Source of the DNA: Escherichia coli
GTDB lineage: Bacteria; Pseudomonadota; Gammaproteobacteria; Enterobacterales; Enterobacteriaceae
Strand: one strand, 5' to 3'
DNA: 64,000 bases
NCBI RefSeq assembly: GCF_003334335.1
Contig: NZ_QOWQ01000026.1
In this document: in pieces, positions 2,163-10,783 of the stretch
Numbering within the stretch: position 1 is the stretch's first letter
How the letters are laid out: every line of letters begins with the position of its first letter
Position numbers and translations under genes: made by a program
Notes under the pieces: generated by a model
What the model was told of the DNA's origin: nothing
What the model saw: only the letters and a program-made list of their open reading frames with translations
Database searches by the model: none

Positions 2163-3248
2163 ATGATGAAAACGATGCGTATTGCTGCGATCCCGGGAGA
2201 CGGGATTGGCAAAGAAGTCCTTCCTGAAGGGATTCGCGTGTTACAGGCTGCCGCTGAGCGCTGGGGCTTCGCCTTGAGTTTTGAGCAAATGGAGTGGGCG
2301 AGCTGCGAGTATTACAGCCATCACGGTAAAATGATGCCGGACGACTGGCATGAGCAACTTAGCCGTTTCGACGCCATCTATTTTGGTGCCGTCGGCTGGC
2401 CGGATACCGTTCCGGACCATATTTCGTTGTGGGGTTCGCTGCTGAAATTTCGTCGTGAATTCGACCAGTACGTCAACCTGCGCCCGGTTCGTCTCTTTCC
2501 TGGCGTTCCCTGCCCGCTGGCGGGAAAACAGCCTGGCGACATCGATTTTTACGTGGTCAGGGAAAACACCGAAGGCGAATATTCCTCGCTCGGCGGTAGA
2601 GTGAATGAAGGTACAGAGCATGAAGTCGTCATTCAGGAATCGGTATTTACCCGCCGTGGTGTCGATCGCATTTTGCGTTATGCCTTCGAACTTGCGCAAA
2701 GCCGTCCACGTAAGACACTAACTTCTGCCACTAAATCGAACGGTTTAGCCATCAGCATGCCGTACTGGGATGAGCGAGTGGAAGCAATGGCCGAGAATTA
2801 CCCGGAGATCCGCTGGGACAAGCAGCATATTGATATTCTCTGCGCGCGTTTTGTGATGCAGCCGGAACGATTCGATGTGGTGGTGGCGTCCAATTTGTTT
2901 GGCGATATCCTTTCCGATCTTGGCCCGGCCTGCACCGGCACCATTGGCATTGCCCCATCCGCCAACCTGAATCCGGAACGCACTTTCCCGTCGCTCTTCG
3001 AGCCTGTCCACGGTTCCGCGCCGGATATCTACGGGAAAAATATTGCTAACCCTATCGCCACGATTTGGGCCGGGGCAATGATGCTCGATTTTCTCGGCAA
3101 TGGCGATGAGCGTTTCCAGCAAGCGCATAACGGTATTCTGGCAGCAATTGAAGAAGTGATTGCTCACGGGCCGAAAACACCTGATATGAAAGGCAATGCC
3201 ACCACGCCACAGGTTGCCGACGCGATTTGCAAAATTATTTTGCGTTAA
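2163..3248 (+). CDS. dmlA: D-malate dehydrogenase (decarboxylating), isocitrate/isopropylmalate dehydrogenase family
   Basis: ORF track 361 aa; IPMDH/tartrate dehydrogenase-type sequence. Confidence 0.95.
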   Translation: MMKTMRIAAIPGDGIGKEVLPEGIRVLQAAAERWGFALSFEQMEWASCEYYSHHGKMMPDDWHEQLSRFDAIYFGAVGWPDTVPDHISLWGSLLKFRREFDQYVNLRPVRLFPGVPCPLAGKQPGDIDFYVVRENTEGEYSSLGGRVNEGTEHEVVIQESVFTRRGVDRILRYAFELAQSRPRKTLTSATKSNGLAISMPYWDERVEAMAENYPEIRWDKQHIDILCARFVMQPERFDVVVASNLFGDILSDLGPACTGTIGIAPSANLNPERTFPSLFEPVHGSAPDIYGKNIANPIATIWAGAMMLDFLGNGDERFQQAHNGILAAIEEVIAHGPKTPDMKGNATTPQVADAICKIILR

Positions 3249-6095: not shown

Positions 6096-7061
6096 ATGTC
6101 AGACTATCAAATGTTTGAAGTACAGGTGAGCCAGGTTGAACCCCTTACCGAACAGGTGAAACGCTTCACGCTGGTGGCAACCGATGGCAAACCATTACCT
6201 GCGTTTACCGGAGGAAGTCACGTCATTGTGCAGATGAGCGATGGTGATAACCAGTACAGCAATGCGTATTCACTACTGAGTTCGCCGCATGACACCTCTT
6301 GTTATCAGATTGCCGTTCGGCTGGAGGAAAACTCGCGCGGCGGTTCCCGCTTTTTGCATCAGCAGGTAAAAGTGGGCGATCGGTTAACGATTTCAACGCC
6401 TAATAACCTGTTTGCGCTAATTCCCTCAGCCAGAAAGCATCTGTTTATCGCGGGCGGTATTGGTATCACCCCTTTCCTGTCGCACATGGCAGAGCTGCAA
6501 CACAGCGACGTCGACTGGCAGCTACATTACTGCTCGCGAAATCCAGAAAGTTGCGCATTTCGTGATGAGCTAGTCCAGCATCCGCAGGCTGAGAAAGTCC
6601 ATTTGCATCATTCATCAACCGGAACACGACTGGAATTAGCGCGATTATTGGCGGATATCGAACCTGGCACACACGTTTATACCTGTGGCCCCGAGGCGCT
6701 AATTGAAGCGGTAAGAAGTGAAGCTGCGCGTCTGGACATCGCCGCCGATACGCTGCACTTTGAGCAATTTGCTATCGAAGACAAAACCGGCGATGCATTT
6801 ACCCTGGTGCTTGCCCGTTCCGGAAAAGAGTTTGTGGTGCCGGAAGAGATGACTATTTTGCAGGTTATTGAAAATAATAAAGCCGCGAAAGTGGAATGTT
6901 TATGTCGTGAAGGGGTATGCGGAACCTGCGAAACAGCAATACTGGAAGGTGAAGCTGACCATCGGGATCAATATTTTAGCGATGAAGAGCGTGCCAGCCA
7001 GCAAAGTATGTTGATCTGTTGTTCGCGTGCGAAGGGTAAACGCCTGGTGTTGGATTTGTAG
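6096..7061 (+). CDS. yeaX: oxidoreductase/reductase partner of YeaW (FMN/FAD-NAD binding plus C-terminal 2Fe-2S ferredoxin domain)
   Basis: ORF track 321 aa; C-terminal CxxxxCxxC...C ferredoxin motif (CREGVCGTCE...C). Confidence 0.9.
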   Translation: MSDYQMFEVQVSQVEPLTEQVKRFTLVATDGKPLPAFTGGSHVIVQMSDGDNQYSNAYSLLSSPHDTSCYQIAVRLEENSRGGSRFLHQQVKVGDRLTISTPNNLFALIPSARKHLFIAGGIGITPFLSHMAELQHSDVDWQLHYCSRNPESCAFRDELVQHPQAEKVHLHHSSTGTRLELARLLADIEPGTHVYTCGPEALIEAVRSEAARLDIAADTLHFEQFAIEDKTGDAFTLVLARSGKEFVVPEEMTILQVIENNKAAKVECLCREGVCGTCETAILEGEADHRDQYFSDEERASQQSMLICCSRAKGKRLVLDL

Positions 7062-7065
7062 TTTG

Positions 7066-7108
7066 CCGAAGCCGGATGTGGCGCTGAGCGCGCCCAGTCC
7101 GGCTTCGG
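7066..7108. repeat. REP-like palindromic element between convergent yeaX and rnd
   Basis: Inverted repeat CCGAAGCCGGA ... TCCGGCTTCGG with GC-rich loop; resembles REP (GCCGGATG...) motifs. Confidence 0.5.
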
Positions 7109-7114
7109 AAGATT

Positions 7115-8242
7115 TTACTGCGGATATTCCTGCAATAAATTGTGTAATGCTTCCGCCATCAGCTCACCACGCCAGCCGGAAATCAGCTCCGGCAAATTGT
7201 TCTGCGGTTTCAGTTTCCAGTGCCAGTTCAGCAGTTGGTTGATTTGCCGACGCGATGCCAGCAATTCGGCGCTGATCTTATGCGTTTCGCTCACGTCAGT
7301 AATCAGCGACTTAATCGCTTTAAACGCTTTACGATAACCCGGCATGTCCATCAGGTTAAGCATCGGCTGCGGTAAGGCATCTTCCGGCAATGTCTGCGCT
7401 TTTTCCACCAGCGCTAGCAGCGTTTTACCGTGAAAGCGGATTTCGCTACCGGATAAACCCAGGCTGTCCAGTTCGCCTAAACTTCCCGGCATATAACGCG
7501 CTACCGACCACAAATGCTCTTCACGCACGACAAAGTTCACCGCCAGATCGCGCTCTCGCGCCTTGCGCAGTCGCCAGTCGGCTAACAGTTGCAGACAGGC
7601 CAGTTGGCGTGTGCGTAATTGCCAGGCATTGGTGATATCACGCCAGGCATCTTCCGGCGCAACGACTTCCTGACGACGCATTTGCATCAGGCGGCATTCA
7701 TCCAGCGCCGCAGGTAGCCAGCCGGAGGCCTCCGTTTCTACCATAAGCTTGGCGGTGATCGGTAACAGATACCAGACATCCGCCGCTGCGTATTCACACT
7801 GACGTTCGGTCAGCGGTCTGGCCAGCCAGTCGGTGCGCGATTCACTCTTGTCCAGCGTAACGCCGGAATACTCTTCCACCATGGAAGCGAAACCCCATGA
7901 CATCGGGCGTCCGCAGAAGGCAGCAAGGATTTGCGTGTCAATCAAGGGTTGTGGTAATTCGCCAAAGACATTGAGGAACACTTCCAGATCTTCACTGCCT
8001 GCATGGAGAAATTTTGTGATGGACGGATCGCGCAGGATCGCTTTCAGCGGTGACCAGTCGGTGATCCCGAGTGGATCGATTAGCGCCAGATGCTCGCCAT
8101 CGAAAAGTTGAATCAACCCCAGCTGCGGGTAATAAGTGCGCGTACGAACAAATTCAGTATCCAGGGCTATCGCCGGAAAGGCACGGACGGCTTCACACAA
8201 AGAAGCCAGCGCATCGTCCGTGGTAATCATTTGGTAATTCAA
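7115..8242 (-). CDS. rnd: ribonuclease D
   Basis: ORF track 375 aa; start codon is TTG (rc of 8240-8242), as reported for E. coli rnd. Confidence 0.9.
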   Translation of the reverse strand: MNYQMITTDDALASLCEAVRAFPAIALDTEFVRTRTYYPQLGLIQLFDGEHLALIDPLGITDWSPLKAILRDPSITKFLHAGSEDLEVFLNVFGELPQPLIDTQILAAFCGRPMSWGFASMVEEYSGVTLDKSESRTDWLARPLTERQCEYAAADVWYLLPITAKLMVETEASGWLPAALDECRLMQMRRQEVVAPEDAWRDITNAWQLRTRQLACLQLLADWRLRKARERDLAVNFVVREEHLWSVARYMPGSLGELDSLGLSGSEIRFHGKTLLALVEKAQTLPEDALPQPMLNLMDMPGYRKAFKAIKSLITDVSETHKISAELLASRRQINQLLNWHWKLKPQNNLPELISGWRGELMAEALHNLLQEYPQ

Positions 8243-8266
8243 ATTGTTTTCTCTTTAGTGGGCGTC

Positions 8267-8291
8267 AAAAAAAACGCCGGATTAACCGGCG
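8267..8291 (-). terminator. rho-independent terminator downstream of fadD, in the rnd leader
   Basis: Minus strand CGCCGGTTAATCCGGCG hairpin followed by T8. Confidence 0.65.
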
Positions 8292-8311
8292 TCTGACGAC
8301 TGACTTAACGC

Positions 8312-9997
8312 TCAGGCTTTATTGTCCACTTTGCCGCGCGCTTCGTCACGTAATTCTCGTCGCAAAATTTTTCCGACGTTAGATTTCGGTAACTCATCAC
8401 GAAACTCCACCAGCTTCGGTACTTTGTATCCCGTGAGCTGACGGCGGCAAAAAGTCACCAGTGACTCTTCGGTAAGCGATGGATCTTTTTTCACTACGAA
8501 GATTTTCACCGCTTCACCACTGGAGCCGGAAGGTACGCCAACAGCCGCGACTTCCTGTACGCCAGGATGCTGCATGACGACATCTTCAATCTCGTTGGGA
8601 TAGACGTTAAAACCGGAAACCAGAATCATGTCTTTTTTACGATCGACAATGCGCAGGAATCCTTCTTCATCCATTACCGCGATGTCGCCGGTGTGTAACC
8701 AGCCATTTTTGATGATTTCATCGGTAGCATCGGGACGCTGCCAGTAACCCAGCATCACCTGCGGTCCTTTGACACAAAGCTCACCCGGTTGACCTGGTGG
8801 TACTTCATTATCATCATCATCCACCAGTTTGGCTTCCGTCGACGGCACCGGCAAACCGATGCTACCACTATGATAATCAATATCATATGGGTTAACGCTG
8901 ACCAGCGGCGCACACTCGGTAAGGCCATAGCCTTCCAGCAGATACTGTCCGGTCAGTTTCACCCAACGCTCTGCCACCACTTGCTGCACTGGCATCCCAC
9001 CGCCTGCGGAAAGATGCAGACTGGAGAAATCCAGCTGCTGGAACTCTTTATTGTTCAGCAACGCATTGAACAAGGTGTTAACGCCCGTGATAGCGGTAAA
9101 CGGATATTTCGCTAACTCTTTTACCAACCCTGGAATATCGCGCGGGTTAGTGATAAGCAGGTTCTGCCCACCCAGTTCGATAAACAGCAGGCAGTTAATG
9201 GTCAGGGCAAAAATGTGATACAGCGGCAGCGCCGTCACCACCAGCTCTTTGCCCGGATGCAACAGCGGACCATAGGTCGCGTTAACCTGTTCCAGGTTCG
9301 CCAGCATATTGCGGTGAGTCAGCATCGCGCCTTTCGCCACACCAGTGGTGCCGCCGGTGTATTGCAGAAAAGCTAAATCTTCCGGCACCAGTTCGGGTTT
9401 GACGTACTGCATCCGGTAGCCGTTATGCAGTGCGCTACGAAATGAAATGGCATCTGGCAGATGGTATTTCGGCACCAAACGCTTGATGTATTTAACAACG
9501 AAATTGACTACCGTGCCTTTTGCCGTAGATAGCTGATCGCCCATACGGGTCAGAATTACGTGCTGAACGGCGGTTTTATCAACCACTTTTTCCAGTGTGT
9601 GAGCAAAGTTAGACACGATAACAATCGCCGATGCGCCGCTATCGTTAAGCTGATGCTCAAGCTCACGCGGGGTATACAACGGGTTAACGTTTACGACGAT
9701 CATCCCGGCACGCAAAATGCCAAACAGCGCCACCGGATATTGCAATAAATTAGGCATCATCAACGCAACGCGATCGCCTTTCTTCAGCCCCAACCCTTGT
9801 TGCAAATAAGCGGCAAACGCGCGACTGCGTTCTTCCAGCTTGCGGAAGGTCATTACCTCCCCCATATTCACAAACGCAGGTTGATCGGCGTAGCGCGCGA
9901 CCGACTGCTCAAACATATCTACCAGAGATTGATAACGGTCAGGGTTGATCTCCGTCGGAACGTCCGCGGGATAACGGTTAAGCCAAACCTTCTTCAA
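8312..9997 (-). CDS. fadD: long-chain fatty acid-CoA ligase
   Basis: ORF track 8312..10063; trimmed to TTG start at 9997 (read as [10 protein letters not shown]..., 561 aa) with GAGGTGA SD; AMP-binding motifs. Confidence 0.9.
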
Positions 9998-10069
9998 TTC
10001 TTCACCTCTAAAATGCGTGTTCGTCGTCATCGCAACCCCAAATGATATACATGCCGTTAACATAATATT

Positions 10070-10086
10070 AACTCATCATACCAGCT
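10070..10086. promoter_or_regulatory. FadR operator in the fadD promoter
   Basis: Minus strand AGCTGGTATGATGAGTT matches the FadR box (ANCTGGTCNGACCNGNT-type) ~75 nt upstream of the fadD start. Confidence 0.6.
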
Positions 10087-10201
10087 TGATAATTACCCAA
10101 CGAAAAGGTTGCGAAGCGCGTCACTATTTATTTTTATCTTTACCGTAAGAATGCAGAAACAGCGGACCAGCCGCTGTTTCTTTTTCTTTAAAAACAAGCA
10201 A

Positions 10202-10783
10202 TTATTCAGTTACAACTGTTTGTACTCTCGCGGGGCCGGGATTATACCAGCCCCATCCGCCGTAGCCATAGGGCCAGCCACGACCGCCATAAAACCATGG
10301 ATCAATCGGCTGAGGCGGCATAATCACCTGCTGGGTTAAATGCCAACGTTTGTAACCCGTTACTTGCATCACCATAAATTTATAGGGCGTATTGCCGATT
10401 TTGCCGTCAACCGCACCAGTGATTGGCCCGACTACCGTAACCAGTTGTCCACGGAAATCCACCGGGTCCAGAAAACCGTTCACATCGGCATAAATGCGAC
10501 CGCGAGAAAGTTCTCCCAGCGTCGGTCTGGCTCCGCTGTCCAGCGGTACGGTAGCAATTTCCAGGCGAGTTTTCCCTTGCTGGTTTTGTACCGCAACCAC
10601 TTTGCCACCAAAGCGTGCCTCCTGACCAACGTACAGCTGCGGCGCACTCATCACCCGAACTAAATCTTGTTGCGGCGTGGGACTGCTGCCTTTAATGGCG
10701 TCCGGCACAGTGACACAACCGCTCAGCATTAGCGCAAACGTACCTGCCAGTATGCCTTTGATAACATTCTTTTGAACCGCCAT
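10202..10783 (-). CDS. yeaY: Slp-family outer membrane lipoprotein
   Basis: ORF track 193 aa; signal peptide with lipobox LSGC. Confidence 0.85.

Follow-up and report, generated by a model that had tools for sequence, protein, structure and literature searches.

Genomic organization of the fadD-rnd locus

The window, a 64,000-nucleotide stretch of Escherichia coli DNA, carries fadD and rnd, the gene encoding RNase D, one after the other on its minus strand. All coordinates given below are window positions, with sequences written as they run on the minus strand. The corresponding MG1655 genome coordinates are obtained by adding 1879749 to the window position, an offset taken from the RefSeq annotation of that genome, in which rnd occupies 1886864-1887991 and fadD 1888061-1889746, both on the complement strand. 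The genes and the known, predicted and candidate elements considered here are as follows, in the order in which they are transcribed.

8312..9997, minus strand: fadD coding sequence as annotated in RefSeq, with a TTG start at 9997-9995 and a TGA stop at 8314-8312
8268..8353, minus strand: SroD, matching Rfam family RF00370 (115.2 bits, E = 7.4e-24, model positions 1-86 of 86)
8344..8349, minus strand: candidate -35 hexamer GTGACG, 17 nt upstream of GACAAT, in the CGTGACGAAGC block
8321..8326, minus strand: candidate -10 hexamer GACAAT in fadD codons -4 and -3, ending 7 nt before the rnd start site
8314, minus strand: rnd transcription start site from SMRT-Cappable-seq, coinciding with the first base of the fadD TGA and giving a 72-nt 5' UTR
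8294..8298, minus strand: 5' strand (CGUCA) of the predicted outer helix in the minimum-energy fold of the E. coli leader
8272..8294, minus strand: intrinsic terminator hairpin AGACGCCGG-TTAAT-CCGGCGTTT, with nine pairs (six of them G-C) and a 5-nt loop, from the terminator scan
8267..8274, minus strand: U8 run, which is the terminator U-tract, holds the 3' ends of SroD and fadD RNA, and is the published translational enhancer of rnd
8263..8267, minus strand: 3' strand (UGACG) of the predicted outer helix, a GC box (U)GGGCG in most other genera
8251..8255, minus strand: Shine-Dalgarno-like AAGAG, 8 nt before the rnd TTG, by direct reading
7115..8242, minus strand: rnd (RNase D) coding sequence, 375 codons plus stop, with a TTG start at 8242-8240, from the open reading frame list and RefSeq

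Both genes begin with TTG, as the first-pass annotation had stated. For rnd, direct reading, the open reading frame list and the MG1655 RefSeq annotation agree on this codon, and for fadD it is given by direct reading and by RefSeq, the open reading frame list instead placing the start at an in-frame ATG further upstream. Direct reading also bears out the 69-nt length assigned to the spacer (8311-8243), which lies between the fadD TGA and the rnd TTG. The same annotation had described this spacer as almost entirely hairpin plus U8, which overstates the case, as the two together occupy 28 of the 69 nt (8294-8267), with 17 nt of spacer on their 5' side and 24 nt on their 3' side. Downstream of the T8 tract follow GACGCCCACU, the AAGAG element (8255-8251), 8 nt and the rnd TTG. 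Of the proposal that the ribosome-binding region of rnd is embedded in or lies next to terminator structure, only the second half holds, AAGAG beginning 11 nt past the last U. In the GAGA core of this element, G, A and A are invariant and the fourth base is nearly so among 68 aligned sequences.

The locus was found in all 5426 complete E. coli genomes, in 5338 of which the 139-nt leader region shows 99% identity or more, and the stretch is part of the core E. coli chromosome. For wider comparison, 80 Enterobacteriaceae loci were collected, 78 of which include the ends of both genes; the order fadD followed by rnd is kept in each of these 78 species.

The rnd promoter and its candidate footprint in fadD

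In the SMRT-Cappable-seq data (PMC6131387), an entry of Supplementary Data 2 presents b1804 as an operon of its own, starting at 1888063 on the reverse strand. This position corresponds to window position 8314, upstream of the hairpin, so that the entire spacer is the 5' UTR of rnd and the hairpin lies inside rnd mRNA. The first-pass annotation, which had proposed a comparison with published mapping of the rnd 5' end, overlooked that the promoter of rnd is located upstream of the hairpin, within the coding end of fadD.

Candidate promoter elements at the appropriate distance from this start site are GTGACG and GACAAT, each of which matches the consensus at four of six positions, or eight of 12 together. 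A promoter scan with a threshold of 9/12 called no promoter in the 3' end of fadD; with four matches per hexamer, the combination GTGACG-17-GACAAT was missed by such a consensus scan. In the 68 aligned sequences, two blocks are invariant, namely CGTGACGAAGC at 8350-8340 and ACAAT at 8325-8321. Across the 78 species, synonymous variation collapses over the last 15 codons of fadD: normalised synonymous entropy is 0.63-0.69 for codons -150 to -21 counted from the stop, 0.28 for codons -14 to -1 and 0.13 for codons -14 to -10. Codons entirely without synonymous variation in this set are CGA, GAA, CGT, GAC, GAA, AAA, GAC and AAT, the zero-variation codons including -4 (GAC) and -3 (AAT), which hold the candidate -10 hexamer. 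This footprint at synonymous sites would provide comparative support for a promoter embedded in fadD. For CGTGACGAAGC, which overlaps the 5' portion of SroD, conservation could be due to SroD instead or in addition. A single promoter of rnd was reportedly mapped upstream of the hairpin in 1989.

The terminator hairpin and SroD

The hairpin ends in T8 (8274-8267) and combines a G+C-rich stem, a short loop and a U-tract, as expected of an intrinsic terminator. Folded in isolation, it has an energy of -14.4 kcal/mol, and the 69-nt spacer as a whole (8243-8311), the fold proposed in the first-pass annotation as a check, is more stable than 200 of 200 shuffled sequences (z = -3.3). The terminator scan found four terminator-like sites in the region against 4.3 expected by chance, and the case for the hairpin is built on its strength, its conservation and published 3'-end mapping, the scan being left out of it. 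In Term-seq data (Adams et al., PMC7815308), RNA 3' ends are located at MG1655 positions 1888017, 1888018 and 1888020 on the minus strand (window 8268, 8269 and 8271), where they are annotated as the primary 3' end of fadD/sroD, at a distance of 27-29 nt before the rnd open reading frame. These ends fall within the U-tract in three data sets, and the terminator is therefore active in vivo; the identification of hairpin plus U8 as the fadD terminator, made originally from the sequence, is confirmed by them.

The terminator stem is paired in 99% of alignment cells. Compensatory changes include G-C to A-U in six sequences (Kluyvera) and C-G to U-A in three sequences (the Cedecea group), and the architecture in Salmonella is identical. 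Two distant relatives with an acyl-CoA ligase gene upstream of rnd keep a hairpin and a U-rich tail, whereas two others with different upstream genes have no hairpin and yet begin rnd with a non-AUG codon, which makes the weak start codon the older trait. The hairpin thereby travels with the upstream fadD gene, as would be expected if it is primarily the fadD terminator.

SroD is represented here by a full-length match to RF00370, far above the 50-bit gathering score of that family, and comprises the final 42 nt of the fadD coding region and 44 nt of the spacer, with its 3' end in the U-run. The first-pass annotation had put this small RNA around the 3' end of fadD and left its ends unplaced; they are 8353 and 8268. 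No further Rfam family was detected in 7000-10400 at E-values up to 1. SroD has been reported to increase in the transition phase (PMC4676190) and to be generated from the fadD 3' UTR and repressed by FadR (PMC8313858), and no phenotype was seen for it when biofilm formation and motility were screened. Since SroD begins 39 nt before the rnd transcript does, it is not an attenuated rnd leader; most simply, it may be a stable 3' fragment of fadD mRNA.

It can be argued that the end of fadD and the hairpin are conserved mainly for a trans-acting SroD, with UUACGUGACGAAGC as its seed, and that the roles in rnd expression are secondary. The invariant block at 8350-8340 does lie within SroD and, at 11 bases, exceeds what a -35 hexamer needs, and the accumulation of SroD at the transition to stationary phase (PMC4676190) also speaks for this reading. 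However, SroD is listed without known function (PMC8313858) and the screens consulted gave no phenotype; the two upstream helices of the RF00370 model, internal to SroD, are paired in 71.3% of cells as against 70.8% in shuffles and show no covariation; and GACAAT, the other invariant block, coincides precisely with -12 to -7 relative to the mapped rnd start. A primarily trans-acting role is accordingly judged unlikely, while deserving more weight than any of the other alternatives considered below. It is also compatible with the preferred reading, in which the spacer is the 5' leader of rnd and the hairpin with its U-run serves several purposes.

Far less credible is the idea that hairpin and U8 act as the fadD terminator only, rnd having no promoter of its own and being expressed by read-through within a fadD-rnd operon. 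The gene order and the short spacer, conserved in 78 of 78 Enterobacteriaceae, would suit such an operon, as would the empty result of the promoter scan in the 3' end of fadD. Against it stand the monocistronic rnd operon starting at 1888063 and the fadD transcripts without rnd among the SMRT-Cappable-seq entries listed, together with the collapse of synonymous variation over blocks that are spaced like -35 and -10 elements and end 7 nt before the start site.

Transcription through the leader

The preferred reading, an rnd leader that begins at the fadD stop codon, places the terminator at about +21 to +47 of the rnd transcript. Given a start site at 8314 and terminating 3' ends at 8268-8271, expression of rnd needs read-through, and the recovery of this start site with a transcript covering b1804 means that read-through occurs.

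A functional terminator within a 5' UTR, in an arrangement that is conserved, invites the alternative that the leader is a regulated attenuator, in which a riboswitch, a leader peptide or a protein antiterminator tunes read-through into rnd. Several observations weigh against it. No Rfam family other than sroD is matched at E-values up to 1, and the first 17-20 nt at the 5' end are the least conserved part of the leader among the 68 aligned sequences. The best folds formed without the 3' arm of the terminator average -4.7 kcal/mol and vary between species, and these alternatives are on average about 8 kcal/mol weaker than the terminator fold (range 2.4-10.9). Short reading frames past the U-run are conserved neither in frame nor in length. 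Regulated attenuation is therefore rated as highly improbable, on a par with the operon reading. As no conserved antiterminator or sensor was found, attenuation in the rnd leader looks constitutive.

One upstream open reading frame was considered separately and rejected. In E. coli, a UUG at 8268-8266 opens a frame of nine codons (LTPTKEKTI*) whose UGA overlaps the rnd UUG, and this frame is not conserved; in other genera, an AUG past the U-run is either in frame with rnd or followed by a stop after four codons.

The U-run as a translational enhancer

The U-run is located inside rnd mRNA and shortly 5' of the Shine-Dalgarno element, the transcript starting at 8314 and running through the U-run at 8274-8267 to AAGAG at 8255-8251. 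It is also retained in evolution, with at least five consecutive T in 78 of 78 species and T8 or T6AT in most of them. According to Zhang & Deutscher 1992, as cited in PMC7769764 and PMC5934652, the U-run of rnd is a translational enhancer that binds 30S subunits, and PMC7769764 names rnd, with its UUG start, as a gene that has such an enhancer. In the same work, as described in PMC5934652 and PMC7769764, removal of the U residues lowers translation and 30S binding but not the mRNA level. The first-pass annotation overlooked this published role of U8. A comparable effect has been described in a synthetic setting (PMC3575828), where a U8 terminator tail immediately preceding the ribosome-binding site raised reporter output from 31 to 100 units, a gain that disappeared once U8 was moved further from the ribosome-binding site.

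In the folded E. coli leader, the unpaired probability of the U-run is only about 0.3-0.4. This predicted value fits awkwardly with the notion of a simple single-stranded landing pad for the ribosome. Deletion of the hairpin and U region reportedly cuts the amount of RNase D protein by more than 90%, with the mRNA little changed.

A candidate outer helix in read-through RNA

In the minimum-energy fold of the leader of most species, the terminator is enclosed by an outer helix, which joins the nucleotides directly preceding the stem to a GC box directly following the U-run and which RNAalifold predicts as well. In E. coli, its pairs are C8298-G8263, G8297-C8264, U8296-A8265, C8295-G8266 and A8294-U8267. 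In an unedited MAFFT alignment, the five outer pairs are formed in 86% of cells, as against 27-49% when the partner strand is slid by one to three columns. The covariation score of the helix is 0.303 versus 0.190 +/- 0.016 in shuffles, none of 500 shuffles reaching 0.303, although this control leaves a phylogenetic signal (sequence kinship) in the score. Re-alignment with a covariance model left the helix statistics unchanged.

Changes on both sides are seen in four of the five outer pairs, and the haplotype table contains at least five separate double changes. One pair is U-A in E. coli as opposed to U·G in E. albertii and C-G in Enterobacter, and is U-A again in strain RIT714. The outermost pair is U-A in three Kluyvera species and U·G in sister species. 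The second pair is A-U in Citrobacter MGH106 and, separately, in Silvania, the nearest relatives of each having an A-C mismatch. The outer helix is not uniformly strong: in E. coli, its pairs reach probabilities of only 0.34-0.38 within the leader, and in Citrobacter and Kosakonia it is imperfect, shifted or weaker. Judged from these comparative patterns, the outer helix is probably real. No mention of it was found in the literature on the locus that was consulted, and the Rfam model ends before its 3' strand.

SroD and terminated fadD mRNA do not contain the 3' strand, and the outer helix can thus form only in read-through RNA. It is tempting to suppose that a clamp of 5-6 bp in this RNA bulges the U-run out near the Shine-Dalgarno element and is part of the enhancer or contributes to leader stability; this is a speculative proposal, with the odds leaning against it. 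If true, one sequence would adopt two conformations set by the fate of the transcript.

Two other pairings were tried and set aside. A more distal outer helix formed by GCGUUAAG and UUUGACGC belongs to the minimum-energy structure of the bare spacer but has a probability of about 0.1 in the full leader, and it is restricted to the Escherichia, Citrobacter and Salmonella lineage. By inspection, the terminator's 3' arm GGCGU could pair with a downstream GACGCC in E. coli, but not in other genera.

Conservation of the non-AUG start

Among the 78 Enterobacteriaceae, rnd starts with TTG in 74, GTG in four and ATG in none. The next three codons (N-Y-Q) vary almost only synonymously (AAT/AAC, TAC/TAT and CAA/CAG), one lineage having Thr at codon 2. 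Codon 5, the in-frame ATG at 8230-8228 in E. coli, is ATT in Enterobacter sp. RIT418. An exhaustive representative search yielded four more distant relatives (46-54% identity), whose first codons are GTG, GTG, GTG and TTG and which all have Leu at codon 5. The solved RNase D structure (PDB 1YT3, chain A) contains 375 aa beginning MNYQMITT, identical to the TTG-initiated open reading frame, and a review (PMC7769764) names UUG as the initiator of rnd. The fadD gene is similar in this respect, its start being TTG in 57 and GTG in 18 of 75 species and never ATG, with a strong AGAGGTGA upstream. Replacement of the rnd UUG by AUG reportedly raises expression.

Many database entries for RNase D comprise 371 residues, one such cluster having 4349 members; these look like automated calls of the ATG at codon 5. 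Since this codon is not ATG in one Enterobacter and in the four distant relatives, translation from it is not supported. The view that RNase D begins there and that the TTG is an annotation artefact, which the first-pass annotation had named as the finding that would overturn its own start, has the many 371-residue entries in its favour and may be dismissed almost outright in the face of codons 2-4 conserved in 78 species, ATT in RIT418, Leu5 behind a GTG or TTG in the relatives, AAGAG 8 nt before the TTG, the 375 aa of 1YT3 and a literature that names UUG as initiator. For annotation, the rnd TTG should be kept, as the many automated entries starting at codon 5 drop four residues.

An integrated view of the rnd leader

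The observations are best explained by regarding the spacer as the 5' leader of rnd, in which a single hairpin with its U8 run has several roles; a probability of about 85% is assigned to this model as a whole. Published mapping shows that rnd is transcribed from a promoter within the end of the fadD coding sequence, its first nucleotide being that of the fadD stop (8314), and that the hairpin with its U-run ends fadD mRNA and sets the 3' end of SroD. Transcripts from the rnd promoter thus meet an intrinsic terminator, and RNase D is encoded by read-through RNA only, in which the U-run, according to the literature, promotes binding of the 30S subunit. The weak promoter (candidate hexamers GTGACG-17-GACAAT), the terminator in the leader, the short Shine-Dalgarno element and the UUG codon may jointly keep RNase D synthesis low and constitutive, with the U-run rescuing enough initiation. 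The conserved 5-bp helix, present in read-through RNA only, may loop out the remaining U residues beside the Shine-Dalgarno element.

It follows from this view that the hairpin merits a threefold annotation, as the terminator of fadD, the 3' end of SroD and a part of the rnd 5' UTR. The locus itself is already known, being the long-known upstream region of rnd together with the known small RNA SroD. What is new is modest, namely the comparative evidence for the promoter, the finding of how deeply the non-AUG start is conserved, and the candidate helix in read-through RNA, and these points leave the established picture unchanged. As for the first-pass annotation, the observation it recorded is real and mostly accurate, and its interpretation was half right.

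Comparison with known systems

The closest counterpart is the rnd upstream region studied by Zhang & Deutscher (NAR 1988; JBC 1989; PNAS 1992), which is the very same sequence, with a UUG start, a GC hairpin and eight U residues between promoter and Shine-Dalgarno element, and a U-run acting as enhancer. There is no difference in kind between that description and the present one. Added here are the window coordinates, the agreement with modern maps of start sites and 3' ends, conservation across 78 species, evidence from synonymous sites that points to the embedded promoter, and the candidate outer helix.

SroD (Rfam RF00370; Vogel et al. 2003) is matched over its full length, and its 3' end falls on the Term-seq ends; the Rfam model halts in the U-run and omits the GC box and the outer helix. 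Small RNAs derived from mRNA 3' ends, such as CpxQ, SroC and MicL, share the terminator of their parent gene, and SroD is listed beside them (PMC8313858). Like them, SroD is described as a product of processing at the 3' end of a longer RNA, and its regulation is that of fadD, by FadR; it differs from CpxQ, SroC and MicL in being listed without a target or function.

A/U-rich enhancers that depend on S1, such as that in the fepB leader with its GUG start, likewise place a U-rich tract a few nucleotides 5' of a weak non-AUG initiation region. Unlike enhancers of the fepB type, the U tract of rnd doubles as the functional U-tail of an intrinsic terminator. Synthetic terminator riboswitches (PMC3575828) arrived at the same overlap by accident, their U8 tail raising expression about threefold. 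The fadD-rnd locus is a compact natural case of this arrangement, in which one U-tract serves both transcription termination and translation initiation.

Short reading frames and the rnd start codon

The stretch between the U-run of the fadD terminator and the UUG start of rnd, the gene for RNase D, contains short reading frames that were recorded in the leader comparison as follows:
window 8239-8268, (-) strand, post-U-run short frames
Enterobacteriaceae comparison loci L024-L035 (own coordinates), at about 2975-3000, post-U-run short frames

In most genera, AUGGGCGC directly follows the U-run on its 3' side, and the fate of the resulting frame varies. The AUG of this element in Enterobacter shares the rnd frame 27 nt upstream with no intervening stop, which makes a 9-residue N-terminal extension of RNase D or miscalled starts possible in that genus. 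The corresponding frame in Klebsiella ends after 4 codons, while E. coli carries a 9-codon frame that opens at UUG 8268-8266 and whose UGA overlaps the rnd UUG. Because these frames are not conserved between genera, they are probably non-coding.

The rnd start codon itself is predicted to lie in a small hairpin (window 8229-8244, (-) strand), in which AUUUG (8244-8240) pairs with CAAAU (8233-8229), and the codon has an unpaired value of 0.04 in the predicted ensemble. RNAalifold retains three pairs of this predicted structure, a hairpin that covariation is unable to judge since its 3' strand is coding. In the protein database, RNase D entries of 371 aa form large clusters from E. coli, Citrobacter and Salmonella (P0001, P0002 and others); these are entries whose start was called at the ATG of codon 5 rather than at the TTG. 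Within the coding sequence, Term-seq places an ORF-internal RNA 3' end at MG1655 position 1887883, equivalent to window 8134 on the (-) strand, in one data set (Adams et al., PMC7815308), about 108 nt inside rnd.

Insertions in the fadD-rnd spacer

The spacer is expanded in three loci of the comparison:
L011 2770-3000 and L021 2771-3000, long spacer insertion, Citrobacter amalonaticus-like
L009 2893-3000, shorter spacer insertion

The long form comprises approximately 160 nt of hairpin-rich sequence with a copy of the terminator stem-loop on either side, and the rnd-proximal of these two copies keeps its hairpin, T8, GC box and Shine-Dalgarno sequence intact. The insertion in L009 amounts to only about 40 nt.

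The fadD 3' end and the upstream hairpin

Counted back from the fadD stop, codon -15 is CGA and codon -14 is GAA in all 78 species compared, and they may mark an element close to the promoter or a site for RNase E (GAA|UUA). The two codons are situated immediately 5' of both the candidate rnd -35 box and the SroD 5' end (8353). Codons -16/-15 (window 8357-8362, (-) strand) read CGA CGA, two rare arginine codons in succession close to the fadD C-terminus.

The terminator scan also returned a structure upstream of fadD:
window 10155-10181, strong hairpin of 11 pairs, AGAAACAGCGG-ACCAG-CCGCTGTTTCT

This hairpin lies between an slp-like ORF (10202-10783, (-) strand) and the fadD promoter region. 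With an A-run at one edge and a T-run at the opposite edge, it resembles a two-way terminator placed after the upstream gene.
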